A stretch of 64,000 bases of DNA. Source: Pseudomonadota bacterium (lineage in GTDB: Bacteria; UBA10199; 2-02-FULL-44-16; JBDRGF01). Positions 9,503-26,522 of the stretch are shown here, one piece after another; the first letter of the stretch is position 1, and every line of letters starts with the position of its first letter. A model generated the notes under the pieces. That model did not search any database. It was not told the DNA's origin and worked only from the letters and a program-made list of their open reading frames with translations. Location of the stretch: contig JBDRGF010000075.1 in the NCBI GenBank assembly GCA_043818055.1, positions 1,733 through 65,732 on the forward strand, in the 5' to 3' direction. Position numbers and translations under genes: made by a program.

Positions 9503-10894
9503 ATGGGGGAGTCAAACTTGCGACTCCCCTCATACATCATATCTACTATGAAAAAACTACTATTAAATAAAAATGTTATTATCAGGGATGAAAGATCATT
9601 TTGGTTGATGTTTAATCCTAATAATGGAGCTACTGTTAAATTGAACAATGATATTGGTAGTCATATCAAAAAGACACTAGATAATGATGAAAAAAAATTA
9701 AACATACCAAACATCAGCGAAAGAACGATCGATGTTTTAAACAAGGAAGGATTTCTAATAAAAGATGGATGTAATAAAGAAGTCTCCCTGAACAATCGCG
9801 TTCAAATCGGTGAAAGATGCAATTGGGTGGTTGGCCCTCAGATAGAATTCAGTTCAAAAATCTCTCCCGTAGGGTTGCTTTGGGAGATAACAAACATGTG
9901 TAATCTGAATTGTGTTTATTGTTTGCCCAATGCAAAGGAAAAAAGAAAAAACAACAAAGAGTTATCAGCTAATGAATTGAACACCATAGTCGACAATATC
10001 ATAAGGGCAAAGGTTTGCAGGGTGACGATATCGGGCGGTGAGGCGTTGCTTAGAAAAGATGATATGTTTCAGATAGCCAGAAAATTAAAATCTGCAAACA
10101 TAATGGTGGGAGCTATTTCGAATGGATTGATCATTGACGAAAAGATGGCAGATGAGATTAAAGAATTGGGAATTCTCATGGGCGTTAGTTTGGATGCTCC
10201 GAAGGGAAATATCAATTGTATAACAAGGGGAAAAGGCGTTTTTGAAAAGGCTCTGACTGCTATTAGGTTGTTGAAAAAAAGAAAAATTCCATTTAATGTG
10301 ATATCTACAGTTACCAATATCAACTTCGACTACCTTCCAGAATTATTTCTGTTGCTCAGGTCTATAGGAGTTACCAATATCGGCCTTCAGGATTTAAAAC
10401 CATCAAATCCGGATGTGTACGAAAAATTTAAACTTACAAGAGAACAAGAGCTAAAAATAAATGACATGTACGCATATCTTAAATCAACTTATCCGGAGAT
10501 ATGCTTTAATGATAACGAATTGAGAATCTTTTCAGGATTGGTTGATAAAAATGGATGCGAAGACAAAACGATAATGAGGTGTTTGGCAGGCACAGTTACT
10601 GGATATATCAATAGCGAAGGTGACATGTTTCCATGCACAAGTTTAAAAAGCTTAAAAATGGGGAATGCTGTTGAGGATGAAATTACACAGATGTGGCAGC
10701 ATTCAGAAGCAATGAAAAAGCTAAAGAAAATGAAAAATCAAACTACAGATGTATTAAGTGGTTGTGATCAAAGCTGTCCCATCAAGAAAACTTGCGATGG
10801 GGGCTGCCGAGGAGAAGCCTTTTATTTAAATGGAGATTGGAGTTCCTTGCATCCTAGATGCTTGAAGATATTAAGATATGAAAATAAAATTTAA
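9503..10894 (+). CDS. Radical SAM enzyme with C-terminal SPASM-like Cys cluster (peptide-modifying maturase candidate)
   Basis: CNLNCVYCLP is the CX3CX2C radical-SAM motif. A C-terminal CDQSCPIKKTCDGGCRGE auxiliary-cluster motif is present. The roughly 100-aa N-terminal region ahead of the core could be a precursor-binding (RRE-like) domain. An alternative start exists at 9548. Confidence 0.75.
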   Translation: MGESNLRLPSYIISTMKKLLLNKNVIIRDERSFWLMFNPNNGATVKLNNDIGSHIKKTLDNDEKKLNIPNISERTIDVLNKEGFLIKDGCNKEVSLNNRVQIGERCNWVVGPQIEFSSKISPVGLLWEITNMCNLNCVYCLPNAKEKRKNNKELSANELNTIVDNIIRAKVCRVTISGGEALLRKDDMFQIARKLKSANIMVGAISNGLIIDEKMADEIKELGILMGVSLDAPKGNINCITRGKGVFEKALTAIRLLKKRKIPFNVISTVTNINFDYLPELFLLLRSIGVTNIGLQDLKPSNPDVYEKFKLTREQELKINDMYAYLKSTYPEICFNDNELRIFSGLVDKNGCEDKTIMRCLAGTVTGYINSEGDMFPCTSLKSLKMGNAVEDEITQMWQHSEAMKKLKKMKNQTTDVLSGCDQSCPIKKTCDGGCRGEAFYLNGDWSSLHPRCLKILRYENKI

Positions 10895-11909
10895 CACATT
10901 TGATTTTCTGATCACAAATGCATGCGACAAAAGATGCTCGATATGCTGCACCAATCCGCATGCCATGAATGAAATCCAGCATTTAAAATTCAATGATTTT
11001 TGTGGGGTTGTCGATTGTATCGAAAAATACTTAGAAGAAAAAAACGAAACAGGCAACTGGGGGATTTCGGGGGGAGAACCCTTTATGTATAGTGATCATG
11101 AGGTGGGAAAAAATTATACGCTGGTTGATATTGTGGAATATCTTAGCACAAAGAAATTTATAAATAGTGTTTCCATCAGAACGTCAGGCTTCGATATAAA
11201 TTCAAAACAAAAATTGATTTTTGATGCATTAGAGAAACTCAGAGCACGCAAATTTATCACTTTTACTACTAGCTACAATTTATTTCAAAAAGGAGACATC
11301 AACGAAAGATTGAAGTGGATTTTACCAATATGGCTGGAATCTCAAGATAATCTTGAGATTCAAGTTATATATAATAAATCCAATTATCAAAAGACCTTGG
11401 ATGGCTTAAATCAGTTGCTAAAGACGGCAAATTTACTTGTCGATAAATCACAGACCATAAAAATCTTGCAGGAAAGATTGCACAAGTCAAATTATTATAG
11501 CTGGTCTATCGATGGAAAGAGAGTGGATATCAAAACATACCCGGCGTATTCTCATGGGAAAATTGATGGTGAAGAGTTTTTTGAGTTCAAGACAGCAAAA
11601 TGCGTTTCACTATCAAAAGCGGATTCAAACGCTGTCTTAGTCGTTAATTTTGATGGAACGCTACATCATTGTTGTAATCCGTATTATAGTTTTAAAAGAC
11701 GGTTTTTTTCACCAAAGATAGAAGGTCTTTTAAGTGGAGGAATAGCATTGGAAGATATCGCCAATTTGTTTTCAGATGGTATGGAAAGGGTTCTGCTTGA
11801 GCCAAAAATAAAATATAATCTCCAGAGAGATTATTGCGATATGTGTTCAGTACTACTCTTTGGACCTGTAATTACAGCAGAAGGAAAGTTTTGTGAAAAA
11901 CCAAATTGA
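10878..11909 (+). CDS. Radical SAM domain protein (second maturase candidate)
   Basis: ITNACDKRCSICCT has CX3CX2C spacing. Downstream Cys pairs HHCCNPYY and CDMCS are present. It overlaps the upstream gene by 17 nt. Confidence 0.65.
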   Translation: MKIKFNTFDFLITNACDKRCSICCTNPHAMNEIQHLKFNDFCGVVDCIEKYLEEKNETGNWGISGGEPFMYSDHEVGKNYTLVDIVEYLSTKKFINSVSIRTSGFDINSKQKLIFDALEKLRARKFITFTTSYNLFQKGDINERLKWILPIWLESQDNLEIQVIYNKSNYQKTLDGLNQLLKTANLLVDKSQTIKILQERLHKSNYYSWSIDGKRVDIKTYPAYSHGKIDGEEFFEFKTAKCVSLSKADSNAVLVVNFDGTLHHCCNPYYSFKRRFFSPKIEGLLSGGIALEDIANLFSDGMERVLLEPKIKYNLQRDYCDMCSVLLFGPVITAEGKFCEKPN

Positions 11910-13314
11910 ACAATTGATCAGCTATTTTCCTGGCGATTATGTCGAAGCCGCGGTTCAGCATAAGATGGTAAACTCATTCTCTTTGCTAAATGGAAAAGGA
12001 GATGGAACTGATTTCAGCGGGACAAAAACTTCTGCGAGAGTGACTTTGTACAGGGGTGGACAAAGGCTTCACCTGCCGATCAGAGAAATAAATGGCAGAA
12101 TTTCATTTTCGGATTTAAAAGATAAGATTTTTAATTCTCATTTCGATAATAAATTTGATGTATATTATAATAAAAACGGTTTTCAAAGGCTCCAAAAGAA
12201 ATCTAAGAATATACTCCGAGATAAAGAGGCTTTTTACTTAACAAAATGCAAGTTGCCTTTCAATTCAATCAACAACAACACAAAAAGAGAGATATTTGCA
12301 GATAGATTGATAAAATGTGATAGGTGTAAGCCATCCTTTGTCGATCTGATAATTTTTTATCAGGATTCTATGACAGAAACCTGCTATTATAATTCCAACA
12401 ATTTCTATCATAACAGAGTGGATAGCATGATTGAATTCTCCGGTTTTCTTAAATATGAGAGAAAACTATATCCAATTTTTTCGCACAACGAAATGGCAGG
12501 ATTGGAAGTTTTGGTTGATTATGTTTTTGGGAATGGATTTGAAGAAAAGATCGAGATGATAAAAGTATTTAAGAATGCATGGGCTACAAAAATAAAGTCG
12601 GGAATCTATAATGTGATCTTGGACCCAACGCTTGGTGCGGGCTTAATTCACGAAGCATTTGGTCATACTTGTGAGGCGGACATCTCATTCAGTAAAAATG
12701 TTAAAGGTCGAAGGGAGTTATTTGCCAAATTTAGAAATGAAGACATCACTATTGCCGATGATCCAACAATTGCTGAAAAGGGGTTTGTCTATATTGATGA
12801 CGAAGGGGTTATGGCTAAAAAAAAATATCTTGTTGAAAAGGGAGTTCTTAAATCCTGCATGCATTCAATATTTACAGCTACAAACAATAATTCAGAAGTT
12901 ATGGGAAATGGCAGAACATCTGATGCGAGCCAAATTCCAATTCCAAGGATGACAAACACTTATATCGAGCCAAAAAATATCAGTCTGACAGAAATGTTCA
13001 GTTCCCTTGACAATGGATTGTATCTCAAAGGTAACATTGGAGGTGGTAAAACAAACGGAAGAAAGTTTTCTTTAAATGTTGAACAAGGATACATTGTAAA
13101 AAAGGGGAAAATAACAGGGAGCCCTATCTCAAATCTTGTCATAAAGGGAGATTGTTTTGCTACGATCAATAATATTGTCAAAATAGGAAATGATTTAACA
13201 TTTGTGAAAGGTTTTGGAGGATGTTCAAAAAAAGGACAAAACAATCTTCCAGTGTCGGGTGGGTCTCCTCATCTTATGGTAAAAAATGTTTTTGTAACGC
13301 ATGTTGAAAGTTGA
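11893..13314 (+). CDS. TldD/PmbA-family metallopeptidase (candidate leader peptidase)
   Basis: LIHEAFGHTCEAD is the HExxxH-type TldD/PmbA signature. The Gly-rich C-terminal beta-region fits the family. GTG start overlaps the upstream gene. Confidence 0.7.
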   Translation: MKNQIEQLISYFPGDYVEAAVQHKMVNSFSLLNGKGDGTDFSGTKTSARVTLYRGGQRLHLPIREINGRISFSDLKDKIFNSHFDNKFDVYYNKNGFQRLQKKSKNILRDKEAFYLTKCKLPFNSINNNTKREIFADRLIKCDRCKPSFVDLIIFYQDSMTETCYYNSNNFYHNRVDSMIEFSGFLKYERKLYPIFSHNEMAGLEVLVDYVFGNGFEEKIEMIKVFKNAWATKIKSGIYNVILDPTLGAGLIHEAFGHTCEADISFSKNVKGRRELFAKFRNEDITIADDPTIAEKGFVYIDDEGVMAKKKYLVEKGVLKSCMHSIFTATNNNSEVMGNGRTSDASQIPIPRMTNTYIEPKNISLTEMFSSLDNGLYLKGNIGGGKTNGRKFSLNVEQGYIVKKGKITGSPISNLVIKGDCFATINNIVKIGNDLTFVKGFGGCSKKGQNNLPVSGGSPHLMVKNVFVTHVES

Positions 13315-13319
13315 TGTAA

Positions 13320-15293
13320 ATGAATATGAAGATACTCTTAGTCAATCCATATTGGTCCATAGTTTCTAAATATACTCCTTATAGTTTATTGCAATTGGGG
13401 TCATATATCAATGCAAAGACAATTCATAAAGCAGAAGTGTTAGATCTCAACATTGAATTACATGATGATATGTACAATCCTCACATTCTTATTGAAAAGG
13501 CTTGTAATTTGGTTTTGCAAAAGGATTTTGACATATTAGGGATTTCGGTCACCACTATAGACCTTCCGTTTACAGTCAGCTTTACCAAAAAATTTAACAA
13601 ATTGTGCAATAAGCCAGTTGTTTTAGGAGGGATTCATGCAACTCTTGCCCCAGATGAGTTATTTTCACTTTGTCCAGTTGATTACATTGTTCGTGGAGAG
13701 GGAGAGATAACTATTTCCAACCTTCTGGATAATTTGGATATAATGAACAATAAAAATCTTAAGGACATTATGGGTCTTTCTTATCGTGATGGGAGTGCGA
13801 TAGTTCACAATAATAACAGAAAAGTAATTTCCGATCTTTCTATCCTGCCTCTAGTGGATTATCAACTCATAAAACCATTGAAACATTATTTTATCAACAA
13901 ACTTAAAAAAAGTTATATCATGTGCAGCAGGGGATGTGGATACAATTGCAAGTTTTGTTCAGGCAGTCGAATATGGATGAAACAGCGCAGATTTCCCATT
14001 GATAGAATATTGAATGAAATCAAATTTCTAAAAGATTCCGGATCCGAGTTCATTTCCATCCAGGATGATTGTTTGACTATGAAGCGCTCCTGGTTTTTGG
14101 AGTTGGCTGAAGGCATTGGAAAAATAGGCATTAATTGGGGATGTTTGAGCAGGCTCGACCGCATTGATGAAGATATGCTTGATACAATGAAATCAAGCAG
14201 GTGCAAAGAGGTCTATTATGGCATAGAGTCGGGTAGCCCAAGGGTAAGAAAATTTTTGGAAAAAGGACTGATGTTTTCAAATGAAATAATTATAAAAAAA
14301 GTCAAAGACACTTTGAAAAGGGGAATTAATCCAATTTGCTCTTTTATGACAGGCATACCGACTGAAACTGAAGAAGAGTTCAATGAAACGGTTAATCTGG
14401 CCGTTGAAATTAAAAGGTGTGGTGCAAAACCTCAACTCAACCTGCTCACTCCACTTACTGGGACTAGACTCAAAGAAGAATACAAAGACAAAATTATTAA
14501 ATATGACAAGTGGGAGAAAATAGGTTTTGCAGACATTTTTGCAAAGGATCAACATTGGCTATTCAACTATCTTCTGGATGAGTTGAAGGATTATCTTCCG
14601 GACTATTATTTGTTCAAAAATCAAATGCCGCTTAATAGATTTGTTTCAAAGTATATGAAAGCCAGAAAAGAGCTTTCCCTCGAGAGCAAAAGCAACAAGA
14701 TGTTTTTTCTAGATAGAACAGAAGATGAGATATTGGTGCTCAATGGTGAAAGGTTGCGTGTCGATAAAAGCAGTTTTATAGAATTAAAACTCGAATGCGG
14801 CATGCTTGATGAGTACAGAGCTCAGCGCAATAAGCTTTCTTCTAATATCATTTTTATTCAATTTAAATATTCATCCTTCAAGTGCAATATTATTCCTGAA
14901 ACAAAGGAATTTTTAACAGAAATCTTAAAAGAAATTAATTCTGGGTATCGTATAATTATATTAAATCCCCTGCCGCGTTGTTCACTGTCGGATGAAGCGA
15001 CGAAACTGTTACGTGAGATAACGCTCCCTCATAATTGTCTTTGGTGTTCAAATCTTTTTTATAAATGTTTGGATAAGATAAAAATGTGCTCAGCCATAGG
15101 GGATGATGTTGAGCTCAAGGTTCCATTTGAACACATAGATAGCAGGAATAGAATATATCGCTATTTTGTAAAAGAAACTTTGGATAAAAATATAATCAGT
15201 GATAAAAAGTGTAGTGAATGTTCAATGCAACGAGATTGCACTATGCTTTGCATAGGTAGAGGTGATCGACAAAACAATGAGAGTTTTGCATGA
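13320..15293 (+). CDS. B12-binding-domain radical SAM protein (class B-like) with a Cys-rich C-terminal extension
   Basis: The N-terminus MKILLVNPYW...VLGGIHATL resembles a B12-binding domain. YIMCSRGCGYNCKFCSG is the radical-SAM cluster. The roughly 190-aa C-terminus has several CxxC motifs. Confidence 0.7.
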   Translation: MNMKILLVNPYWSIVSKYTPYSLLQLGSYINAKTIHKAEVLDLNIELHDDMYNPHILIEKACNLVLQKDFDILGISVTTIDLPFTVSFTKKFNKLCNKPVVLGGIHATLAPDELFSLCPVDYIVRGEGEITISNLLDNLDIMNNKNLKDIMGLSYRDGSAIVHNNNRKVISDLSILPLVDYQLIKPLKHYFINKLKKSYIMCSRGCGYNCKFCSGSRIWMKQRRFPIDRILNEIKFLKDSGSEFISIQDDCLTMKRSWFLELAEGIGKIGINWGCLSRLDRIDEDMLDTMKSSRCKEVYYGIESGSPRVRKFLEKGLMFSNEIIIKKVKDTLKRGINPICSFMTGIPTETEEEFNETVNLAVEIKRCGAKPQLNLLTPLTGTRLKEEYKDKIIKYDKWEKIGFADIFAKDQHWLFNYLLDELKDYLPDYYLFKNQMPLNRFVSKYMKARKELSLESKSNKMFFLDRTEDEILVLNGERLRVDKSSFIELKLECGMLDEYRAQRNKLSSNIIFIQFKYSSFKCNIIPETKEFLTEILKEINSGYRIIILNPLPRCSLSDEATKLLREITLPHNCLWCSNLFYKCLDKIKMCSAIGDDVELKVPFEHIDSRNRIYRYFVKETLDKNIISDKKCSECSMQRDCTMLCIGRGDRQNNESFA

Positions 15294-18200
15294 AAAGGAT
15301 ATATACAGAAAGATTCTACATTCTTTCGGTTGCTGTCATCATCATTCTGGCGGGTATCTATTACTCCCTAAGAATCCCCATAGAGTTATATCCCAACGCC
15401 ACTCAGACGAAAATAACAGTCCAAACTCATTATAAAAGTCTATCTCCTTTCGCCTTTAAAGATCGTTATGGAGATTTGATAGAAAAAGAATTGAATGGAG
15501 AAGGCGAATTTGAAGAGGTAGATTGTAAATATCAATACGAATATGCAATTTGCAGGGGAAAGTTGCCGTTCGGTTCAGATGATCATGTAATTTTGGAAAG
15601 GGTAAAAAACAAGCTTGAACCAATTTTTTTGTCATTTCCCGCTGAATGGAAAGAGGCAGAGGTAAACTTTGGCGATTCCAACAAGGGAGTTCTTATAATA
15701 GCATTATACTCAAAAAATATACCTCTGAAAAAGGTCTATGATGAGATATCGCCATCGATCAATTCGTTCCTTTCGACTCATCCCGATGTCAGTGTCGGTG
15801 AAGTTTCAAATCTTTTTGAAAAAAAGATTTCAATAAGCATAAAACCAAATGTTGAAAATAAAATCACCAAAGAAATGATCTTTAATCAACTTAGTTCTTC
15901 AAACAATGATATTAAAACCATTGGAAACATTTCCATTGAAGGAAATATTCTTTCAATAGAAGCAAGTTCAAAATTGATAGAAAGCCTTGATGATCTCGAA
16001 AATTTCAAGCTTTTGACCAAACAAAATGAGATACTAAAGCTGAAAGATATCGCCGACGTAAAAATCATTCCAGTCGAACCTAATGAATTGTTTAAAGGAA
16101 ATAATCAAAATTCACTCATAGTGTGGGTTGCTCCTCAGGCAAAGGCTAACCTGGTTAATTTTAGCGATTCCATCGAATCCAAAGTCAAAGCAGAGATTAA
16201 ACGTTTCAACGGCGAAGTTACTGCTCAAACGCTTTTGAATCCGGCATCTTTTATCAGGAACGCGGTTAAAGACATTTTGTATTCATTGATTATCAGCGTG
16301 ATACTCTCTGGAATTGTCGTCTTCTTGTTTTTGGGATCCTTGAAATATTCCACAGTTATAAATCTAGTCATGCCCTTGTCGTTATTTGGCACTATTTTAT
16401 TCATGTATATCTTAGGTATAGAAGTGAACCTCATTTCAATGGGGGCAATGGCCATTGCAATAGGCATGGTTGTCGATGCATCTATAGTGGTAATAGAAAA
16501 TATTTTTAGGCACCTGCAAAATACGCATCCGAAGGATTATTCCGAGAAACTTGGAATCTATGTCAAAGCTGTATCAGAAGTTAAAGGTGCACTTTTTTCG
16601 TCAACGATAACGACCATATGTGTTTTCGTGCCACTGCACTATGCCTCTCCTCTTGTCAGCGCCATCTTGGGAGATGTTGCGACGGTGATGACGCTCAGTC
16701 TTTTTCTTTCCATGATAATGGCCATCTTTTTTGTTCCTTCAATCCTTTTGTGGATAAATCCAGATATCACGCAGATGGAAAATTTAAAGCACAAGTCCAA
16801 TTTTCTAAATAGATGTTTTACAAATATTCAAAAATACTACTCAGAGGCAGTTAAATGCTTTATCACAAATAAAGTCATCAATGTCCCGATTATAATAACA
16901 TTGTTAATCCTCTTTTTACTATCTTTATATTTGGCTGTTTACAAGATTGACCACGAACTTATAGCAACACCGACATCAGATATAATTGTTTTTCATAGGG
17001 GTAATTCAAAAGACGTTGACAGCATTGCTACGCAGGAAAAGGATTTTCACGATACTGAGCGGGAGGTGTTTAAGCTAACATCTGACTATGTTGATTTTAC
17101 GCTTACCGTCTTGCGCAAGGATTTAGCGATGATGTTGTTGCACATCAAAAATGAAAAATACAAAGAAACATTGAAACAACTTCTCATAAAAAAATATAAG
17201 AGCTCAGAAAAATATGAATTCAAGGTAGTCGATTGGGTTCCAACGCAATTTGAAATACCAGACCCACCACAGATGAAGGTGTTGATCGGCGGTGCAAGCC
17301 CAGCTGAAAGCAAATTGATTCAGGCTGAGGTGGAAAAATTCATTTTAGCAAACAGCAAAACGGTAAGGTCTTATTCCATTCCGACAAGCCTAACTTCGGA
17401 TGAGATAATCGTTGATATAGACGTTGAAAAACTGGGTTATCAAAACAGAATTCACGGAACATCTTATTCAAAAAAACAAATCCTTGATATCTTGAATTTT
17501 CACGCGAAAGAAAAATATTTAAGGCACATGAAGTTTGATGGAGCAAAAACAGCGGTATTTCTTGAATCGGACTATCCCAAATTAAAGAGAGAAAAGATTT
17601 CAAGCTTTAGCATACCGTTTGGGAACGGATCGCTAACGCTGGATAAAATCGCAGACATAAAATTAGTCAAATCAGATAGTGAGATTCACAGCTACAATGG
17701 TGGTATGCAATATGAAGTAGATGCCTTTTTTTCGGACAAGGGCTTCACATATTTCGATGAATTTTCAACAACATTAATTCATAAATTTGGTAAAGAGAAA
17801 ATATCAACACATTATCCTTATGGACTGATAAACGATACAATAAACAAACTCTTTTGGGCATTGGCTGTTTCCTGTTTGCTCGTATTCCTTGTGGTTTTTT
17901 TACAATACAGGAACATCTATTACACCTTAATAATATTGATGGCAATTCCTACTAGCGTGATTGGAGCTCTCATTTCATTATATATATTCAAATCAACTCT
18001 TGGCATGAACGCGCTTTTGGGTCTCATTTTGCTTTCAGGCATAAGTGTCAACAGCACAATCATCATCATAGATTTTTACGATAAAATAGGCTCTGACGAC
18101 ATCGCTGACGGAATTGTTCAAACGATGAACTTGAGATTAAAGCCAATTTGCATGACTGCCTTTACCACTGTCATAGCAATGGTACCCATCGCTGTAAAAT

Positions 18201-18343
18201 TATTCAGCGGTTCAGAGGCGCTGCAGCCGCTGGGAATAACGATAAGTTGCGGATTATTTGTTTCAACACTATTGATACTCTTTATCGTTCCCTGGCTACT
18301 CTATTGTTTGCCGAAGAAGAGAGTTGGGAAATCACAGTTATGA
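15290..18343 (+). CDS. RND-superfamily (AcrB/HAE-like) efflux transporter permease, 1017 aa
   Basis: The N-terminus SLRIPIELYPNATQTKITVQT matches the AcrB motif. Two 6-TM bundles are separated by large extracytoplasmic domains. Confidence 0.75.
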   Translation: MKRIYTERFYILSVAVIIILAGIYYSLRIPIELYPNATQTKITVQTHYKSLSPFAFKDRYGDLIEKELNGEGEFEEVDCKYQYEYAICRGKLPFGSDDHVILERVKNKLEPIFLSFPAEWKEAEVNFGDSNKGVLIIALYSKNIPLKKVYDEISPSINSFLSTHPDVSVGEVSNLFEKKISISIKPNVENKITKEMIFNQLSSSNNDIKTIGNISIEGNILSIEASSKLIESLDDLENFKLLTKQNEILKLKDIADVKIIPVEPNELFKGNNQNSLIVWVAPQAKANLVNFSDSIESKVKAEIKRFNGEVTAQTLLNPASFIRNAVKDILYSLIISVILSGIVVFLFLGSLKYSTVINLVMPLSLFGTILFMYILGIEVNLISMGAMAIAIGMVVDASIVVIENIFRHLQNTHPKDYSEKLGIYVKAVSEVKGALFSSTITTICVFVPLHYASPLVSAILGDVATVMTLSLFLSMIMAIFFVPSILLWINPDITQMENLKHKSNFLNRCFTNIQKYYSEAVKCFITNKVINVPIIITLLILFLLSLYLAVYKIDHELIATPTSDIIVFHRGNSKDVDSIATQEKDFHDTEREVFKLTSDYVDFTLTVLRKDLAMMLLHIKNEKYKETLKQLLIKKYKSSEKYEFKVVDWVPTQFEIPDPPQMKVLIGGASPAESKLIQAEVEKFILANSKTVRSYSIPTSLTSDEIIVDIDVEKLGYQNRIHGTSYSKKQILDILNFHAKEKYLRHMKFDGAKTAVFLESDYPKLKREKISSFSIPFGNGSLTLDKIADIKLVKSDSEIHSYNGGMQYEVDAFFSDKGFTYFDEFSTTLIHKFGKEKISTHYPYGLINDTINKLFWALAVSCLLVFLVVFLQYRNIYYTLIILMAIPTSVIGALISLYIFKSTLGMNALLGLILLSGISVNSTIIIIDFYDKIGSDDIADGIVQTMNLRLKPICMTAFTTVIAMVPIAVKLFSGSEALQPLGITISCGLFVSTLLILFIVPWLLYCLPKKRVGKSQL

Positions 18344-19578
18344 AAATGTTAGGCGCATTAAAATTGAACAGAAATTTTTGGCTGCTCATAACAGGCCAGT
18401 TCACATCGAATATCGGCAGCACAATTTCAGAGCTGGGAATATCTTGGCTCGTCCTCAAGGAGTACTCGATCACAGAGTTTACCATATTTTCCGGAATATG
18501 CTTGCTGCCAAGGGTTATTCTGACTCCTCTGTTAGCCCCCCTCTTTGAAAGGGTGAATAAGAAGTTGCTGATGATCTTGTCTGATATCGTAAAAGGCATC
18601 TGTTTGTTTACAATGTATCTGCTCTTTCTCACGAAGGGTCTCAGATACGAGTATATCGTTTCCTTGATGTTTGTTCACGGACTTGTCGGCGTTTTGTTCA
18701 GCATTGCGGTAGAACCTCTGTATTACGACATATTATCGTTGGACGAATATCCAAAGGGGACATCGCTCAGAGAATTATTTGGCCGCATGGCGCCTCTCAT
18801 CGGACCTTCAGCGACTGCCATAATAATGGCAATATCCGGAAACATCGGTCTTTTGCTTCTTATAGATTCAATTACTTTTTTTGTCTCAGCCCTTTGTATC
18901 GTTTTTATCCGCTTGCATATGAAAACAGACTTTGAAAAAACGCCCAAGACAACAGGGTTTAGTTCGTATGCTAAAAATCTGTTTCAGGGGTTGGCGTATG
19001 TCAGCAAAAACAAAAATCTGTTGATGCTCTTTACGTCGTTGATAGCGATTGGGTCTATGTTGGGGGTTTTGGCTTCAATAATGCCGATATACATACGGGA
19101 TCATCTCTCTTCGGGAGTTGTTGGGTTGAGTATTTTTCAGTTGATAGGTAATGCAGGCGCTATAATCGTAGCTATCGGATTGACGATTTGGCAGTACAAA
19201 AGCTCACATTCGAGTATATATTCCTTTGGCGTTGGCATCATTGGCATTGTCGTCATGGGGCTGGTCGTCACTTCAAATTTCTATGCAGCGACATTCATAT
19301 ACTTTTTGCTGCAGGTGACGATCACCATCGCAAGCTATGCGGCAAAAATCCTTTTACGGGAAAATATCGAAGATGACTACAAAACCAGGGCATATTCGTT
19401 GATGTCCATGGAGCAGCTGTTGCAACCGATAACCATCTCTCTGTCAGGGCTCGCAATAAAAGCAATCGGGATTGATAGCATCGTGATGATCATAGGTATT
19501 ACTATAATGATAATAGGGCTTGTTTTGTTGGTGATAAATTTTAAAACGAGTCTTGTTTTTTCCAGAATTTTGGACTGA
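18340..19578 (+). CDS. MFS transporter
   Basis: 12 predicted TM helices. Start chosen at ATG 18340 (MKMLGALKL...), overlapping the RND stop as ATGA. The longer track ORF starting at 18148 would overlap the RND gene. Confidence 0.65.
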   Translation: MKMLGALKLNRNFWLLITGQFTSNIGSTISELGISWLVLKEYSITEFTIFSGICLLPRVILTPLLAPLFERVNKKLLMILSDIVKGICLFTMYLLFLTKGLRYEYIVSLMFVHGLVGVLFSIAVEPLYYDILSLDEYPKGTSLRELFGRMAPLIGPSATAIIMAISGNIGLLLLIDSITFFVSALCIVFIRLHMKTDFEKTPKTTGFSSYAKNLFQGLAYVSKNKNLLMLFTSLIAIGSMLGVLASIMPIYIRDHLSSGVVGLSIFQLIGNAGAIIVAIGLTIWQYKSSHSSIYSFGVGIIGIVVMGLVVTSNFYAATFIYFLLQVTITIASYAAKILLRENIEDDYKTRAYSLMSMEQLLQPITISLSGLAIKAIGIDSIVMIIGITIMIIGLVLLVINFKTSLVFSRILD

Positions 19579-19594
19579 AATCCAGGATTCTGGA
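19561..19594. promoter_or_regulatory. Second pair of TCCAGGATTTTGGA-type palindromic sites, 20 bp apart, about 90-120 bp upstream of the second sigma-54 promoter
   Basis: tccagaattttgga (19561-19574) and tccaggattctgga (19581-19594) have the same consensus and the same spacing as the pair at 9080-9113. Confidence 0.5.
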
Positions 19595-19681
19595 CAGAAA
19601 ATTAGGATTTTATCCGGCTAAATTGACTGTGTAGTTGTGTAACCATATAAAATATAACGTTTTGTGTTTTTTCCTCCACTT

Positions 19682-19696
19682 TGGCACATGGATTGC
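19682..19696 (+). promoter_or_regulatory. Sigma-54 promoter TGGCAC-ATGGA-TTGCT upstream of the MFS / precursor C / methyltransferase operon
   Basis: Exact -24/-12 consensus. The flanks (cTTTGGCACa...aTTGCTATA) closely resemble the promoter at 9191. Confidence 0.7.
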
Positions 19697-19831
19697 TATA
19701 TATTTCAAAAAGTTAAGCAACAAGTTGTAATAGAGTGCGATAATGGTGGGGTAATATAAAGTTACGTAATGAAGTTTTTATATTCAAATTGAAATTGAAA
19801 TTTATTTTCTAATGAAACATGACTTACCGTA

Positions 19832-21076
19832 ATGATAATCAATGGTAAGAGGCATATGGTAAATAATAAAAACCTTTTACAGATATCCTACTTTATTAAT
19901 CAATTAGGTACTTATACAAGCTATCTTGCCATCATTGCAATAGCTCGGGAACACAATAATTCTATAAATTCTATTGCTATGGTATTGGGTGCTTCAGCGG
20001 CAGGGACAATGGTTGGGTGGCTTTTGACAATGAAATATCTTAAAAATGTGCACGCAAAACTTCTCCTTTCGTCATCGTTGATATTGTCAGGTTTGATGAT
20101 GGTATCAATTTTATGTCTGGTTAATTGGTGGCTAGTTGTTGCTGCTTTTTTTGTGTTAGGAATGTGTACCAATACCTACATGTCATCATTCTATACTTTA
20201 ATTCCCAGGATGATCAAAAAAACAGATGTGCCTAATATTAATCAGAACATTCAGATATTGTCTCAATTAGCCATAGTTATAGGTGCGATTTTGGGCGGCA
20301 TTTTGTTAGATCGGTTTGGGTTTAGGCTTCCGCTATTTGTTGATATTATTTCTTATTTATTAGTTGGGGTTGTTTATATGTGTCTTTCCCATAATAGATT
20401 TGTAATTTTATCAGCAGAGAAAGCGAATGATAATACGAAAGACCAAGAAGTGGTACGTCCAAAATGTCCATTTCAAAGGACATTGTTATTTTCTCCATTG
20501 GTGTTGGCTTTTCTGGTGGCTTTTGCTGCAGGTGCATATAATGTGATTGAAATTCCATTTTTCACCGATATTTTAGGGTTGCCCTATCGCTACATTGGAT
20601 TTTATTTTTCAATTTCGGTATTGGGAATTCCAGTTTTTCATGCTTTGGTACGTAAAAAGATGTTGCAAATGGAGTCGCTGCGATCCCTGTTTATCGGTAT
20701 TGCATTAGGTGGTTTGGTTTATTTAGTATGGGGTATGCAGAGCAGCTTATGGATAACTGGTCTTTTGTTAATTTTATTCAGCCTCTTTCAATTAGTTATA
20801 TTCACTTCAGTGAATAATTATCTACATGCCCATGTATTGGAAGATAATAAACTTCAAACGGTTTTTTCAACTTTGCAATTTGGGAGACGTGTGGCAGCTC
20901 TGCTGGGTAAATTAGCGATTCCCTTTATTGTAGGTTTTGCAGGAGAAAAATTTTCTTTTTCAGTGCTAGGTGTTATTATGATAATTGGATTGATTGTTGT
21001 TTTGATAACCAAAAGAGTGATAGAAGGAAGTATGAGTATTGTTGGAGATTTACAACAAAATGCCGCCGAATATTAA
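19832..21076 (+). CDS. MFS-type transporter (second)
   Basis: About 12 TM helices with typical MFS loop spacing. An alternative start exists at 19856. Confidence 0.6.
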   Translation: MIINGKRHMVNNKNLLQISYFINQLGTYTSYLAIIAIAREHNNSINSIAMVLGASAAGTMVGWLLTMKYLKNVHAKLLLSSSLILSGLMMVSILCLVNWWLVVAAFFVLGMCTNTYMSSFYTLIPRMIKKTDVPNINQNIQILSQLAIVIGAILGGILLDRFGFRLPLFVDIISYLLVGVVYMCLSHNRFVILSAEKANDNTKDQEVVRPKCPFQRTLLFSPLVLAFLVAFAAGAYNVIEIPFFTDILGLPYRYIGFYFSISVLGIPVFHALVRKKMLQMESLRSLFIGIALGGLVYLVWGMQSSLWITGLLLILFSLFQLVIFTSVNNYLHAHVLEDNKLQTVFSTLQFGRRVAALLGKLAIPFIVGFAGEKFSFSVLGVIMIIGLIVVLITKRVIEGSMSIVGDLQQNAAEY

Positions 21077-21095
21077 ATTAGAGAAAGGAGGAGGT

Positions 21096-21176
21096 ATGAA
21101 GCAAATGGATTTGCTTGGATTGGACAACATTGAAATTCAGCAAGAAGGATGTTGCCCTCAGGGAATTGACGGATAA
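21096..21176 (+). CDS. Putative RiPP precursor peptide C (26 aa): MKQMDLLGLDNIEIQQEGCCPQGIDG
   Basis: Strong RBS AAAGGAGGAGG 6 nt upstream. It shares the leader motif NIEIxxEG with peptides A and B. The CC-containing C-terminus sits directly upstream of the methyltransferase and the anSME-like radical SAM. Confidence 0.5.
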   Translation: MKQMDLLGLDNIEIQQEGCCPQGIDG

Positions 21177-21270
21177 TACATCAAGAATATTCATATTATT
21201 ATGAATCTATTATCCGGGGGATCTCATTGCTTTAGTCCCCCGGATAACATGATTCAAAAGGAGTGATGCG

Positions 21271-22281
21271 ATGAATCCTGTAAGTCAGATGAGAAGTTGG
21301 ATTAATTCTATGCACATTGCTAAGGCTGTTAATATTGGTGTTGAGGTGGGATTATTCGGTGTGATTGCTGAAATAAAATGTCCAACAACAGTTCAAGAAC
21401 TAGCCAGGCAAGCTTGCTGTGATCAGGGATATGTAGAATCCTGGATACATGTTATGCAAGCGGCAGGAATTATTGATGTTGATCAAAATGGTCATCTGTC
21501 GTTTGTTAGTGACTGGAAGGAAGCCCTTACAGATCGAGATAGTGATAAATATGTGCCGCCGATGATGGAATGTCATTTCGCTATTGCAGATACCTATCCG
21601 AGATTTGCAAAATTTTTTAGAAATGGAAATTGCATGCATTCAAATGAATTCAGTGAACCACTGCTGGTCGGTATTGCTGCGGATGCAGTGCGATTTGCAA
21701 ACTATTTTTTGCATGTAGCTGTGGATAAGATTCCAGATTTGAAGCTAAAACTGGAAGAAGGAATAGATGTTTTAGACGTGGGTTGTGGTGGCGGGCAATT
21801 TCTTTCAAAAATAGCAACACAATTTCCAAAGTCGCGCTATGTAGGTATCGACCCGTTAGATAAAGTTATTGATATGGCTAGGGAGGAGGCCAAACATTAT
21901 AAAGTAGAGAGTAGAGTAGATTTTATTGTCGGTTGCGGTTCCGAAATCAAAAAGGAATGTGCTGATTTAATAATTCTTAATGAAGTACCTCACGAAATGG
22001 ATGCTAAAGTAAGACAACCGGTGCTGGATGCTTGTTGTAAAGCATTGAAAAAGGATGGTCTTTTGTTTCTGGTTGATATTTTGGCCCCCGAAAATGCCGG
22101 GGATTATGTACGGCCTAATTTCTTATTATCATCACTAGTTCAGTTTTTTGAAAAACCATGGGGTTCAAAATTGTTGACATACTCAGAATTGAAAATCTTA
22201 ATTAGAAATGCAGGTTTTTCGGATTTGACACACTTGGTGTCAGCAGATGATGTAGTTGTCGCATATACAAAACCCATATAG
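21271..22281 (+). CDS. Class I SAM-dependent methyltransferase (O-methyltransferase-like, with N-terminal dimerisation/winged-helix-like region)
   Basis: IDVLDVGCGGGQF is the glycine-rich SAM-binding motif I. A downstream acidic motif LIILNEV is present. Confidence 0.75.
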   Translation: MNPVSQMRSWINSMHIAKAVNIGVEVGLFGVIAEIKCPTTVQELARQACCDQGYVESWIHVMQAAGIIDVDQNGHLSFVSDWKEALTDRDSDKYVPPMMECHFAIADTYPRFAKFFRNGNCMHSNEFSEPLLVGIAADAVRFANYFLHVAVDKIPDLKLKLEEGIDVLDVGCGGGQFLSKIATQFPKSRYVGIDPLDKVIDMAREEAKHYKVESRVDFIVGCGSEIKKECADLIILNEVPHEMDAKVRQPVLDACCKALKKDGLLFLVDILAPENAGDYVRPNFLLSSLVQFFEKPWGSKLLTYSELKILIRNAGFSDLTHLVSADDVVVAYTKPI

Positions 22282-22289
22282 ATATATTA

Positions 22290-23522
22290 ATGAAAAAAAA
22301 TTATCATAATATTTTAGTTGATGGAAAAAAAATTCGTTTTTATCCCGATGAAATGTTATTTTATAAAGGCAGTTCATTTCCGAAGGATGTGGATAAAGAT
22401 AGAAATGTGAGGCCATCCGTTTGTAAATCGGTAAAGATCGCAAACAGCAGGAAACTACAACTGGCGTTGACAATCACTAAGAGCTGCAACATGAAATGTA
22501 CATATTGCTATGATAAGAAAAATATGAATATTTCTTCTAATTCGAAAAATATGCATTTTAGTACACTATGCGATGCAGTGAATAAGTTTTGTAATAGCAG
22601 GATTGGTAATTACAATATACATTTCATAGGTGGAGAGCCGCTTTTATGTCTGGATTTAATCAAACAAACTGTAGATTATTGCAATAAGAAGGCTGCAATT
22701 GATAGCTCGGTATTTACATATAGTATTTCGACTAACGGTACAATAATTGACAAAGCCATAGCAAAGTATTTTTCCGAAAATAAAATTAAAATAAGATTAA
22801 CCTTTGATGGTGTAGAAGAATCTCAGAATGTCAATCGACCGATGCGCAATCGGGAGCAGAGCTTTTCTCATGTGGTACGATCGTTATCAAATCTAAGAAA
22901 TGCAAGTTGTGATTTTAGTGTTATATCTGTACTTCATCCCAATTTTCTTCATAAAATGCTTAAAGCTTTTGAAAATATAATTCAATACAATCCAAATGCG
23001 ATAAAATTTGTTCCTCTAATAAATATAGATGCGCTTGGATGTAAGTATGTCAGTGATCATAGTGTCATGTTTGCAGAATCTCTTCGGAATATCGCTAATC
23101 AATTGATCAGTAGAAAAGATGAAAAAACAATTATGAAAATTAAGAATATAAGCGTGTATTTGCCTTATATTCATAATCGTATAGCGAACATCAAGGGGTG
23201 TATTGCAGTTAATAAACAATCATATGCAGTGAATGTAGATGGTTCTGTGTATCCATGCTCAACCTTTGTTGGTATAGATACTCATCGTTTGGGGATGATA
23301 AATGATTATGAACTCAATCCTAATTCCATAAAATGTGAATCAATAACGACGAGATGTTTATCCTGCTGGGCACGAACATTATGTCCTGGAGTATGTGCTT
23401 ATACTGCCGATAATAATTCAGCATGCTCATCAGCAATGAATTGTGAGTTTATAAAAGGAGAGATTACTGTTGCTTTGGAAGTATATAGCAAGTTGTATCC
23501 TCATAAAATTAGAAGGGAGTGA
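22290..23522 (+). CDS. Radical SAM/SPASM protein of the anSME/thioether-forming maturase family
   Basis: LTITKSCNMKCTYCYD is the CX3CX2C motif. The C-terminal SPASM-like stretch is CESITTRCLSCWARTLCPGVCAY. Confidence 0.75.
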   Translation: MKKNYHNILVDGKKIRFYPDEMLFYKGSSFPKDVDKDRNVRPSVCKSVKIANSRKLQLALTITKSCNMKCTYCYDKKNMNISSNSKNMHFSTLCDAVNKFCNSRIGNYNIHFIGGEPLLCLDLIKQTVDYCNKKAAIDSSVFTYSISTNGTIIDKAIAKYFSENKIKIRLTFDGVEESQNVNRPMRNREQSFSHVVRSLSNLRNASCDFSVISVLHPNFLHKMLKAFENIIQYNPNAIKFVPLINIDALGCKYVSDHSVMFAESLRNIANQLISRKDEKTIMKIKNISVYLPYIHNRIANIKGCIAVNKQSYAVNVDGSVYPCSTFVGIDTHRLGMINDYELNPNSIKCESITTRCLSCWARTLCPGVCAYTADNNSACSSAMNCEFIKGEITVALEVYSKLYPHKIRRE

Positions 23523-23531
23523 CGAATTGCC

Positions 23532-24716
23532 ATGAATAACCTAATAAAAAAAGCATTTCAACTTTGCTGTTTTTTAATTATCATACTAATACCATTTTAT
23601 ATTCAAGCGGATCAAAATATTACAATAGCGCTGGTGAATAATTTTTCGGATTTTAGATCTCCATGTGGTGATCCTAAAGGAGAAAACTTTTTGAATGCTT
23701 TGAATTTAGCATTGGAAGATTTTTTAAAAGATCATAAAAAATATTCAGATCAAATAATACTTAGAAAATATGATTATGGTAATTCACCACTTAATACGGA
23801 ACGTATTACATTAGAAGCTGTTCGCTCCGATGCAGTAGCATTAATTGGATATCCATGCTCTAGTTTTGCTCTTCTTGCTGCTCCAATAGCTGAGGCGCAC
23901 AATGTTGCTATGATTACGCCATCGGCTACAATTGATTCATTAACCGAGAGTCGTGAATATGTATATCGCGCTTCATTTAGGGATGAAGATCAAGCTAAAG
24001 TTATGGCGGAATTTCTGGCAAATGATCTGGATAAGAAAAAGGCTGTAGTTATTGTTAATCAGAATTACCCATATTGCACTAATTTATCAGAGCAATTCCA
24101 GCATTATTTTAAAAAATATGGAGGAAAGATTGTAAAAGTGTTTAACACGCTTTCGAGCCAAAAAAGCTATAATAAAGAAGTAAATGAAATGAATCACTTA
24201 TCATATGATGTAGTTTTTATTCCTAATCATGAAATGGAGAGCGCTACTATGGTTAAAGAAATATATAATTTGAGTATGGAAACCACTGTTGCTGGTGGAG
24301 ACGGATGGGGGAATTTGTATGGGTATATTTTTCCTGCTATAGTTGGAAATAAAAAAATTGATGCGTATGCAATTGCTCATTGGAATCGTGATTCTGTTGA
24401 CACTAGTTCAAAAGAATTTCAGAAAAGGTATTATAATCGTTTTGGATTTTATCCAAACGATAATTCAGCATTAGCTTATGATGCTATGAGTCTGCTTTTA
24501 CATGCAATATCTAAGGCGAAAAAAATAAATAGGAAAGAAATCAACGCAGAGCTCAAATCAATCCGGTCTCATTTCGGTGTAACTGGGAGATTCTCTTATA
24601 ATCGAGGTAATGGAACGCCTTCAAAAAATGTTTATATAGTAAAATATCCTCAACCCAATTTGTCTCATGAAGGTGATCGTAGATTTGAGCATTACAAGAG
24701 TGTTATCGTAAAATAA
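23532..24716 (+). CDS. Periplasmic substrate-binding protein (type I PBP, Leu/Ile/Val-binding / ANF-receptor-like), secreted
   Basis: Has a signal peptide, and its architecture and length fit type I PBPs. It sits directly upstream of, and is translationally coupled to, the sensor kinase. Confidence 0.6.
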   Translation: MNNLIKKAFQLCCFLIIILIPFYIQADQNITIALVNNFSDFRSPCGDPKGENFLNALNLALEDFLKDHKKYSDQIILRKYDYGNSPLNTERITLEAVRSDAVALIGYPCSSFALLAAPIAEAHNVAMITPSATIDSLTESREYVYRASFRDEDQAKVMAEFLANDLDKKKAVVIVNQNYPYCTNLSEQFQHYFKKYGGKIVKVFNTLSSQKSYNKEVNEMNHLSYDVVFIPNHEMESATMVKEIYNLSMETTVAGGDGWGNLYGYIFPAIVGNKKIDAYAIAHWNRDSVDTSSKEFQKRYYNRFGFYPNDNSALAYDAMSLLLHAISKAKKINRKEINAELKSIRSHFGVTGRFSYNRGNGTPSKNVYIVKYPQPNLSHEGDRRFEHYKSVIVK

Positions 24717-24717
24717 T

Positions 24718-26499
24718 ATGCAGCTTAAATTGAGTCATAAAATAAACTTCTATTTTATTTTAATCATGCTTCTGGTGACGCTATGTTCTGTTGTATTTAT
24801 TTTTTACATGGCAAAAGTTGAACGCAGTAAGCAAATCGACATGGCGGTTTCTAAAATGAAAAATATAGCTGCTATTGAATCAGAAGATATTATTGCTCAA
24901 ATTCTTTTTCATTCATACTCGTCACTCGATCTAATAAGTAAAAAAATTCTAGAAGAAAACAAAAATATATTTGTTGATATTCGACTTAATGATTTTGTTA
25001 CAGGAAATGAATTGAAATATAAATATTGTATTCCTGATAATAATGGAGTGTGCTACAACAGGGATGATGATGTGCTTCAATTCGTATATTCCTTGAATTA
25101 TGGAGGTAAGGATTTAGGAAGCCTCATCATGGCACAACAGATGGGTTCTTTCACTATGCTGATTAAGCCATCAGTATCAGTAATTGTATTATTTGCATCC
25201 TTGGTAACAATAGCGATGCTCGGAATGTTTATGTTCTTTATCAGAAAAAATATCAGTCAGCCAATCAATATATGTATTCGATCATTTTCAGAAATTAAAT
25301 CTGGGAAGAGAAAAAATATTCCAAAAATGAATACTCGCGATATGAATATACTAGTTGAAAATATTAATTCACTTATGGAAGATTTAGGAATATTTCAAAA
25401 AATTGCTGAAAGAAATACACATTTAGCCGCCATAGGACAAATATCATCCCACGTCGCACACGATATGCGATCGCCGCTGTCTGTCATACAGGGATATCTG
25501 CGGGGAAATCAAAAAAACATGAAACTTCTCGAAGCAGCAAAGGGAAGCGCAAATAAACTGAATAACATGGCCGATGAACTATTGGATTATGCCAAGGCCT
25601 CGAAGATTGAGCCGGTTGCAACATCGTTAAAAAGCCTCGTTGAAACCACCGTCAGCAAAGAGGTTAAAAATATCGCCGATGAAAAGGGTGTAAAGCTTAT
25701 TTATGATGTGAGGGATGATGTTGTTGCTAAGATAGATCATTACCGAATGGAACGTGTCCTGACCAACCTCATCACGAACGCCGTTCAGGCGATTGATGCG
25801 GAATCAGGTGAGGTAAAAGTTTCTGTTAAATCAGACAACGAAAATCTCAAAATAACAGTTACAGATAATGGCAGGGGAATAAGCAAAGAAGATCAGAAAA
25901 AGATTTTCGATAGCTTTTTCACAAAGGGAAAGATGAGAGGGACAGGCCTTGGGCTCTCATATTGCAAAAACGTCATAGAGGCACATGGGGGCGCTATTGC
26001 AGTAGAGAGTGAAGTTGGAAGAGGAACAGAGTTTTCGATTAATATTCCATCTTGTATTACAACACCACATGCCACATGCTACATACCACATGCTGTCCCT
26101 AGCCATCAGACATCAGCGGTCAGCGGTCAGCCGACAAAAGGCGAGTTGGACTCGGATAACGACATCCTCGTCGTCGATGATGATGTGGGAATAATTTTAA
26201 TATGGTGTGGCCTGATAGAGAAGAAAACAGGAAAACCGCCCATAACCGCAAAGAGCCCTGAAGAGATGATGAAAGCCAAAATCGATTACAGCAGGGTATC
26301 AAAGGCGATTGTTGACTATCAATATGAGGGAAGTAAGCTCACCGGCCTCGATGTCGTACAATTTTTGAAAGAGAAGGGCGTGCAGGTGATCCACATGTGC
26401 ACGGGGATGTATCACGATGAAGAATTGCAATCGCAGGCGAGAAAGTTAGGCGTTGCTTCGATCATACCTAAGCCTATTAGCGCCGATACGAATATTTGA
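24718..26499 (+). CDS. Sensor histidine kinase (two TM helices, periplasmic loop, HisKA + HATPase_c) with a degenerate C-terminal receiver-like extension
   Basis: H-box SHVAHDMRSPLSVIQGY. N/G boxes ITNAVQAID, TDNGRGISKEDQKKIFDSFFT, GTGLGLSY. The C-terminus DILVVDDDVGI...IVDYQ resembles a receiver domain. Confidence 0.8.
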   Translation: MQLKLSHKINFYFILIMLLVTLCSVVFIFYMAKVERSKQIDMAVSKMKNIAAIESEDIIAQILFHSYSSLDLISKKILEENKNIFVDIRLNDFVTGNELKYKYCIPDNNGVCYNRDDDVLQFVYSLNYGGKDLGSLIMAQQMGSFTMLIKPSVSVIVLFASLVTIAMLGMFMFFIRKNISQPINICIRSFSEIKSGKRKNIPKMNTRDMNILVENINSLMEDLGIFQKIAERNTHLAAIGQISSHVAHDMRSPLSVIQGYLRGNQKNMKLLEAAKGSANKLNNMADELLDYAKASKIEPVATSLKSLVETTVSKEVKNIADEKGVKLIYDVRDDVVAKIDHYRMERVLTNLITNAVQAIDAESGEVKVSVKSDNENLKITVTDNGRGISKEDQKKIFDSFFTKGKMRGTGLGLSYCKNVIEAHGGAIAVESEVGRGTEFSINIPSCITTPHATCYIPHAVPSHQTSAVSGQPTKGELDSDNDILVVDDDVGIILIWCGLIEKKTGKPPITAKSPEEMMKAKIDYSRVSKAIVDYQYEGSKLTGLDVVQFLKEKGVQVIHMCTGMYHDEELQSQARKLGVASIIPKPISADTNI

Positions 26500-26522
26500 A
26501 TTCGCTGAGATGGGAGGCAAAG

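Follow-up and report, generated by a model that had tools for sequence, protein, structure and literature searches.

The 64,000-nucleotide stretch analysed here (positions 1,733 to 65,732 of contig JBDRGF010000075.1, assembly GCA_043818055.1, from an uncultured Pseudomonadota bacterium; hereafter the window) encodes a radical S-adenosylmethionine (SAM) peptide cluster organised in two consecutive operons. The segment 19561-19697, in front of the second operon, is likely to be an enhancer-dependent sigma-54 promoter that feeds the operon carrying the cluster's own activator gene. It comprises an exact -24/-12 promoter match and, upstream of it, a pair of palindromes that represent putative activator sites; a related module (9080-9206) heads the first operon. 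Both halves of the cluster, the sensor and activator genes included, are probably turned on by the products of those same genes. Since the same type of module precedes both operons and the only local activator gene lies in the second one, a single autoregulated regulon is the economical model.

The promoter core TGGCACatggaTTGCT (19682-19697, + strand) matches the sigma-54 consensus TGGCAC-N5-TTGCW exactly, with GG at 19683-84 and GC at 19695-96 in the canonical GG-N10-GC spacing. The original prediction was correct in calling TGGCAC-ATGGA-TTGCT an exact consensus, although it placed the end at 19696, one base short of 19697. Three exact matches are present in the window (3934-3919 on the minus strand, 9191-9206, and 19682-19697) against 0.04 expected, and none of 100 dinucleotide-preserving shuffles of the window, which served as the null for promoter counts, contained three. 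Apart from the two promoters, the + strand from 9.2 to 28 kb holds no sigma-54 site with up to one mismatch. The 19682 promoter is intergenic and oriented along the + strand. The start site was placed 12 nt after the promoter GC for distance calculations; transcription is thus predicted to begin near 19708, 148 nt before the ATG (19856) of a major facilitator superfamily (MFS) transporter gene. The predicted 5' leader (19708-19855, + strand, ~148 nt) matches no Rfam family and does not fold significantly (z = +0.47), and a structured RNA at this place was therefore rejected.

Upstream activator site A (putative), TCCAGAATTTTGGA (19561-19574), is a 14-bp palindrome centred at about -140.5, and site B (putative), TCCAGGATTCTGGA (19581-19594), has perfect 5-bp arms and is centred at about -120.5; neither has a strand. 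They begin 121 and 101 bp upstream of TGGCAC, and site A shares sequence with the end of the upstream MFS gene (its final five codons and stop, 19578). The two sites had been proposed to lie 121 to 88 bp upstream of TGGCAC and 20 bp apart, and both figures proved right, the 20 bp being counted from start to start. The pair consists of two 14-bp sites with a 6-bp gap, with half-sites TCCA, TGGA, TCCA and TGGA at 10-bp steps; the four half-sites would share one helix face, and the dimer site could be either register. A scan of the whole window with the site-pair pattern TCC-N3-AT-N2-TGGA-N6-TCC-N3-AT-N2-TGGA, allowing up to three mismatches, returned only 9080-9113 and 19561-19594, which amounts to four strand-hits against 0.13 expected, and no shuffle reached four. 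Lone 14-mers with one mismatch occur at chance level (18 found, 14 expected), and the signal therefore resides in the pair and its position. A loose site-pair scan of the genome collection gave at least 119 matches, mostly chance; none of the matches listed has a sigma-54 promoter downstream, and the genome of the window itself is not among them.

Two further candidates for upstream sites were dropped. One, GGATTTTATCC (19603-19616), is out of register and has no counterpart at the first promoter, and the other, a lone TCCGAAATCCTGGA at 39443, is unpaired and located within a coding open reading frame (ORF) according to the ORF list, and was taken as chance. The sites are separated from the promoter by an 87-bp strandless spacer (19595-19681) with 69% A+T. 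No convincing integration host factor (IHF) site was found in the spacers, that of the first module having one match with a single mismatch and that of the second none; intrinsic bending of the AT-rich spacer is an alternative to IHF. The 32 nt leading into site A (TAAAACGAGTCTTGTTTTTTCCAGAATTTTGG, 19542-19573) and the 32 nt leading into the -24 element (TATAACGTTTTGTGTTTTTTCCTCCACTTTGG, 19653-19684) are 72% identical and lie 111 bp apart, a resemblance that may be due to chance in AT-rich DNA. The -24 element of a homologous operon in another organism (L140, described below) likewise sits inside TCCAGATTTTGGCA.

The sister module is composed of the strandless site pair TCCAAAATCCTGGA, 6 bp and TCCGGGATTTTGGA (9080-9113), recovered with the same site-pair pattern, and the sigma-54 promoter TGGCACaataaTTGCT (9191-9206, + strand), which lies ahead of the first operon (9268-19578) and its precursor genes A and B. 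Between the site pairs, 26 of 34 positions are identical, and the promoter core with its flanks, ACTTTGGCACA...ATTGCTATA, shows 87% identity over 23 nt between both promoters, in line with the similarity to the flanks at 9191 noted in the original prediction. The spacers, 77 bp in the first module and 87 bp in the second, are 31-36% identical, which is the background for DNA of 69-77% A+T. The distance from sites to promoter is 111 bp in the first and 121 bp in the second, a difference of exactly 10 bp, or one helical turn; the site centres are at -130.5 and -110.5 relative to the first predicted start and at -140.5 and -120.5 relative to the second. The description of an identical module appearing twice thus holds as regards its recurrence and fails as regards identity, given the differences in sites, spacers and distances. 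Chance does not explain the recurrence of promoter and site pair. The confinement of similarity to the parts that a protein would be expected to read fits functional selection, which predicts it, rather than recent duplication.

The most likely binder of both site pairs is the activator encoded by 26523-27929. This protein contains the Pfam domains Response_reg, Sigma54_activat (4e-63), AAA_lid_14 and HTH_8, and its translation displays GESGTGKE, GAFTGA and Asp53, the domain features of NtrC-type (group I) activators. The best matches in PDB are NtrC1 and NtrC4. Its score reaches no NCBIfam equivalog cut-off (AtoC scores highest, 371 versus 714), and hence it is not assigned to a named orthologous group; its relatives are mostly labelled as Deltaproteobacteria metagenome-assembled genomes. 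Used as a tblastn query, this activator retrieved no other activator gene from the 64-kb window. The kinase and activator genes are the last genes of the operon that the 19682 promoter precedes, which would place the sensing module under its own control.

The elements, their counts and geometry, the genes and the parallels in other loci are observed in sequence; that this activator binds here, that transcription depends on sigma-54, where it starts, the feedback loop and its signal are inferred, and the following mechanism may be envisaged. Sigma-54 RNA polymerase would sit on 19682-19697 as a closed complex, and dimers of the NtrC-type activator would occupy the two palindromes near -140 and -120. 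Upon phosphorylation the activator would assemble into an ATPase ring, the AT-rich spacer would loop, and ATP hydrolysis would open the promoter. Transcription could then proceed from about 19708 through the genes for the MFS transporter, precursor C, methyltransferase, radical SAM enzyme, binding protein, hybrid kinase and activator. The same activator would drive the first operon through the module at 9080-9206. Input to the activator (26523-27929) would come from the neighbouring binding protein and kinase, and in this way the sensing module would amplify its own synthesis.

The cluster is rare. Homologous loci were found in other organisms. A profile search with the methyltransferase defined a family of 17 proteins at E < 1e-86, and a cassette comprising a Cys-containing precursor, methyltransferase, PapB-like radical SAM enzyme, Peripla_BP_6 binding protein and hybrid kinase is present in at least three other organisms (L140:9718-15764, L143:1-6264 and L134:10779-16581, corresponding to 21096-26499 of the window). 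The precursors align (MKQMDLLGLDNIEIQQEGCCPQGIDG in the window, MKKKKDVLGLENIEVESDSCSQGIH in L143 and MNKDTLCLDDINLEGCDLCPREISD in L140). The closest homologous operon is that of L140, with identities of 50% for the methyltransferase, 54% for the binding protein, 35% for the radical SAM enzyme (E = 3e-73 in tblastn against the window protein) and 33% for the kinase. At a cut-off of E <= 1e-40, which proved too strict, a homologue search with the PapB-like radical SAM enzyme returned none but the query. The L140 operon begins with the sigma-54 promoter TGGCATagattTTGCT, followed by the genes for the precursor MNKDTLCLDDINLEGCDLCPREISD, methyltransferase, radical SAM enzyme, binding protein, hybrid kinase and MFS transporter, and a 34-bp inverted repeat (14+6+14) lies 65-100 bp upstream of the promoter. 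In L143, a gene for an activator homologue (45% identical) directly precedes that of precursor MKKKKDVLGLENIEVESDSCSQGIH, after which come the methyltransferase, radical SAM enzyme, binding protein and hybrid kinase genes; the region comparable to the activator sites lies off the contig. L134/L135 contain a more distant version of the cassette with an activator gene (50% identical) nearby. An activator gene is thus found nearby in three of the four cassette loci, and the copies in L140, L143 and L134/L135 all occur without the first operon. In two further loci, L141 and L142, the methyltransferase gene adjoins the binding protein and kinase genes, and the radical SAM gene is absent.

Sequence comparison further suggests that a sigma-54 promoter before the activator's own gene or operon recurs in the clade. 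In L131 (activator 53% identical; 3180-3310), three TCTCA-N4-TGAGA palindromes are located upstream of the sigma-54 promoter TGGCATgtaatTTGCT, which heads an operon of kinase, activator, binding protein and hybrid kinase genes. L137 (50% identical; 9720-9936) and L138 (47% identical; 9670-9889) carry exact sigma-54 promoters 65-110 bp before the activator gene, both with upstream inverted repeats. The repeats of L131, L137 and L138 are clade-specific (TCTCA-N4-TGAGA; GAACA/TGTTC; TTCGGGTTTCCGAA); the 14-bp palindrome format of 5+4+5 is common to the window and L131, and the letters of the half-sites differ. Positive feedback is a reasonable inference, reinforced by loci L131, L137, L138 and L140. 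The single regulon with a feedback loop claimed in the original prediction is partly supported: its structure and regulon logic stand within the reach of sequence analysis, and the identity of the activator and the loop are presumptive.

Several additional features of these loci were recorded. The activator homologues with 47-53% identity mostly adjoin genes for SBP_bac_5 binding proteins and kinases, and L138 is flanked by peptidase and oligopeptide-transporter genes. The repeats of L138 and L140 have the 12-mer CGAAATCCGAAC in common. Matching recognition helices to site sequences across homologues gave a consistent trend, from too few and too incomplete loci to serve as a test: the L143 activator ends in GRTTLYAKLRELG, like P0012, and the repeats of L138 and L140 share the 12-mer just mentioned.

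A number of observations weigh against this autoregulated sigma-54 model. The assignment of the activator to the sites is by proximity only, and the closest activator homologue (P0002 in L002, 60% identical) is an orphan whose surroundings are unrelated and hold neither a sigma-54 promoter nor sites. The L140 repeat is related to the site pair of the window but different in sequence, and the activator gene is outside the L140 DNA examined; the syntenic cassette of L134/L135 lacks a good sigma-54 promoter in the DNA examined. The rpoN gene is absent from the 64-kb window; sigma-54 in this genome is implied by the intact activator gene and the three consensus promoters. The kinase is of the hybrid type, and none of the cluster's proteins contains a histidine phosphotransfer (Hpt) domain; an Hpt protein may be encoded elsewhere in the genome. 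A positive loop also presupposes basal transcription, for which no promoter was identified; sigma-70-like matches are as frequent as chance would give (69 versus 69.5 expected), a level that neither supports nor excludes internal sigma-70 promoters. Finally, the site pair folds as an RNA hairpin right after the MFS stop.

It is unlikely that, at a genuine sigma-54 dependent promoter, the palindromes are bound by an activator encoded outside the window and the activator of 26523-27929 acts elsewhere, which would provide co-regulation of both operons with no autoregulatory loop. Related activators can indeed be orphans, as in L002, and the third exact sigma-54 promoter (3934-3919, minus strand) has no TCCA/TGGA sites, which implies at least one other activator in the genome. 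Having neither such sites nor clear repeats upstream, that promoter was rejected as a member of the regulon. The site format is likewise not peculiar to this activator. A metagenome scan for site B with a sigma-54 promoter 62-92 bp downstream yielded nine contigs, one of which (L129) is this organism's first promoter. In two others, L123 (380-1891, minus strand) and L125 (1096-3152, + strand), two to three TCCAYAATTRTGGA sites with a 20-bp period are located between an activator gene and a sigma-54 promoter. The activator is only 34% identical to that of the window, the contigs are unrelated, and the L125 promoter heads a STAS-CheY-CheA-CheW-CheR chemotaxis-type operon, so arrays of TCCA-N6-TGGA at a 20-bp period, judged from these sequences, are a recurring enhancer format of other regulons, which also counts in favour of an enhancer role in the window. 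Against an outside activator, the sole activator gene in 64 kb lies inside the regulated operon, homologous loci have a sigma-54 promoter with repeats before the activator gene or operon, and activator genes are neighbours of the homologous cassette in L143 and L134/L135.

Two further explanations take the promoter or the palindromes to have other roles. The second half might be transcribed mostly by read-through from the first promoter, by unrecognised constitutive promoters, or by both, with the 19682 promoter contributing little, which we regard as quite improbable. No terminator was found between the stop of the first operon (19578) and the promoter (19682), and the string of genes from 9268 is co-directional and tight; the first promoter may therefore read through into the second half, in which case the second promoter would be an internal booster. 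The loop requires basal expression from somewhere, and in other bacteria many sites resembling the sigma-54 consensus are occupied yet transcriptionally silent. Intragenic sigma-54 sites are reported in large numbers by the genome-wide studies that PMC7910581 cites. A silent site, however, is unlikely to carry a phased pair of activator sites matching that of the first promoter, and the one at 19682 is intergenic, in the correct orientation and 148 nt before a gene; moreover, the homologous L140 operon is headed by a sigma-54 promoter without any upstream operon. It is highly improbable that the palindromes act as a 3' stem-loop of the RNA, ending or stabilising the first transcript, or as a repressor operator, and that their proximity to the promoter is incidental. 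The pair does fold with 14-bp arms after the MFS stop (-24.9 kcal/mol, z = -3.5), and the pair of the first promoter also folds and was flagged as terminator-like. However, two palindromes built on one consensus are automatically complementary, which makes the hairpin a by-product. No U tract follows the pair of the second promoter, which is not listed by the terminator scan and thus does not qualify as an intrinsic terminator, and the first promoter has no + strand gene upstream to terminate, its neighbour being divergent. Both copies also share their distance and helical phase relative to a sigma-54 promoter.

The operon that the 19682 promoter would serve consists entirely of + strand genes with gaps of 1-23 bp, except for a 93-bp gap before the methyltransferase gene. 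It starts with the gene for the MFS transporter (19856-21076), whose likely start is the ATG at 19856, with AAGAGG 6 nt upstream, the longest ORF beginning at 19832. Precursor peptide C, MKQMDLLGLDNIEIQQEGCCPQGIDG (21096-21176), has 26 amino acids, and homologous peptides are encoded in the same place in L140 and L143. It is followed by a class I SAM methyltransferase (21271-22281) with an N-terminal winged-helix domain and by a radical SAM peptide maturase (22290-23522), for which the top NCBIfam match is PapB, a ranthipeptide maturase (179 bits, cut-off 340). The sensing genes encode a periplasmic binding protein of the Peripla_BP_6 family with a signal peptide (23532-24716), a membrane hybrid histidine kinase with two transmembrane segments, HisKA, HATPase and a C-terminal receiver (24718-26499), and the NtrC-type sigma-54 activator (26523-27929) with a receiver (Asp53), an AAA+ domain with GAFTGA, and HTH_8. 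The gene content given for this operon in the original prediction is therefore right.

The transcript of this operon may not be uniform. The gap between the genes for precursor C and the methyltransferase holds a hairpin with a 13-bp stem (21210-21247, + strand; z = -3.9) and no U tract. A hairpin without a U tract occurs in the same place in L143 (~1009-1050, z = -5.5), and L140 has none. The hairpin of the window is a candidate attenuator or transcript stabiliser, and it may yield a more abundant short precursor transcript. Short, more abundant precursor transcripts occur in many peptide clusters. With such a strong hairpin, a single uniform transcript across 19832-27929 is doubtful. At the other end, no terminator is evident after the activator gene, and genes on the same strand continue to 31981. 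They code for three tandem paralogous P-loop proteins of ~240-257 amino acids (27989-31981, + strand, with the rest of the string), with motifs GRPAAGKSEF, GRPACGKSEF and GKPACGKSEL and with faint Zeta-toxin and AAA_33 hits as the sole family matches, followed by a 385-amino-acid membrane protein. The P-loop and membrane protein genes may share the transcription unit of the activator.

The first operon encodes two tandem precursors, a SPASM radical SAM enzyme, a second radical-SAM-like protein, a TldD-like peptidase and a B12 radical SAM enzyme, three radical SAM enzymes in total, and ends with an RND pump and then the MFS gene (stop 19578). Precursor genes A and B (MEALKKGITEIEIVTEGSEEEMLWGVVGGK and METLRKDINEIEVVTEGSEEEMLWGVGGSKNN; 9255-9479) form a 122-bp tandem duplication with 81% identity, including the ribosome-binding sites, and their products lack Cys. 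The best matches of the SPASM enzyme beside them are MftC and WgkB, all far below the cut-off.

Outside the cluster, the third exact sigma-54 consensus, TGGCACaaaacTTGCT (3919-3934, minus strand), is located ~40 nt before a 179-amino-acid ORF (3879-3340) with no family match, and a weaker divergent site, TGGCATggaaaATGCT (4270-4285, + strand), lies 59 bp before an 884-amino-acid ORF (4329-6983). Neither has TCCA/TGGA sites, which implies another activator, outside the window. The window also contains a Pel-type exopolysaccharide operon (37332-52411, minus strand) encoding PelG, a PelF-like DUF3492 glycosyltransferase, a PelD-like protein with a degenerate GGDEF domain, a PelB-like TPR protein and a PelA-like hydrolase, as well as genes for a PtsN-like EIIA protein (32887-33363) and a CdaA-YbbR fusion (7129-8349).

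The architecture of the promoter is textbook. In the established enteric NtrC/glnAp2 system, the -24/-12 promoter likewise has GG-N10-GC spacing, and two strong dimer sites share one helical face ~100-140 bp upstream; a histidine kinase feeds an activator of the receiver-AAA+-HTH type, and the activator gene is transcribed from a promoter that the activator controls, as it would be here. In contrast, the NtrC site is TGCACC-N5-GGTGCA, spaced by 32 bp, versus TCCAR-N4-YTGGA and 20 bp here, and NtrC targets nitrogen assimilation rather than a peptide natural-product cluster. In Myxococcus xanthus, Nla28 and sigma-54 control polyketide (PK) and non-ribosomal peptide (NRP) clusters, with sigma-54 promoters and tandem activator half-sites before and inside natural-product operons, including internal promoters (PMC7910581). 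Activator sites there may be inside the upstream gene, and most Nla28-type promoters are intragenic (PMC7910581); site A, which overlaps the end of the MFS gene, is similarly placed. However, the Nla28 targets are PK and NRP clusters, not ribosomal peptides, and Nla28 is a global developmental regulator encoded outside the clusters it controls, unlike the in-cluster activator described here. The autoinduced lantibiotic systems of nisin (NisRK) and subtilin (SpaRK) are well established as having an in-cluster two-component system and an operator-promoter module repeated before several operons. They differ in their OmpR-type regulators and sigma-70 promoters and in that the mature peptide is a proven signal, in place of which the present cluster has sigma-54, an AAA+ activator and a periplasmic binding protein.

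In domain content, the sensing genes resemble the LuxP-LuxQ-LuxU-LuxO relay of Vibrio, which likewise combines a hybrid kinase in the membrane with a periplasmic binding protein and a response regulator dependent on sigma-54. Unlike that relay, the cluster encodes no LuxU-like Hpt protein, the NCBIfam scores for LuxO (293) and LuxQ (90) fall far short of the cut-offs of 800 and 1200, its binding protein belongs to the LivJ type (Peripla_BP_6) rather than the LuxP type, and the targets would be operons, not small RNAs. Tentatively, and with more doubt than confidence, the second operon may be regarded as a self-contained signalling module for a ribosomally synthesised and post-translationally modified peptide (RiPP), in which the methyltransferase and the PapB-like radical SAM enzyme would modify the small, Cys-containing precursor C and the MFS transporter would export it; outside the cell, the mature peptide would be sensed by the binding protein and hybrid kinase, which would turn on the activator. 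By analogy with LuxPQ/LuxO, a RiPP autoinducer may switch on its own operon together with the larger RiPP operon. This reading draws on the recurrence of the cassette without the first operon, with an activator gene adjacent in L143 and nearby in L134/L135, and on the persisting linkage of the methyltransferase gene to the binding protein and kinase genes in L141 and L142. The mature peptide may be the inducing signal; the one thing that speaks for it is the conserved linkage of the precursor, methyltransferase and radical SAM genes to those of the binding protein and kinase.

No account of a radical SAM peptide cluster under the control of a sigma-54 activator was found in the searchable full-text literature. 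If the autoregulated sigma-54 model is true, control by sigma-54 and enhancer-binding proteins, which in that literature was found only for PK and NRP clusters, would extend to ribosomal peptides. The element would also offer a way to control this multi-precursor radical SAM peptide cluster, itself uncharacterised and from an uncultured bacterium: co-expression of sigma-54 and a constitutively active activator in a heterologous host should induce the two operons. Of greater interest as a lead is the conserved cassette of precursor, methyltransferase, radical SAM enzyme, binding protein, hybrid kinase and activator, which may represent a peptide signalling unit.

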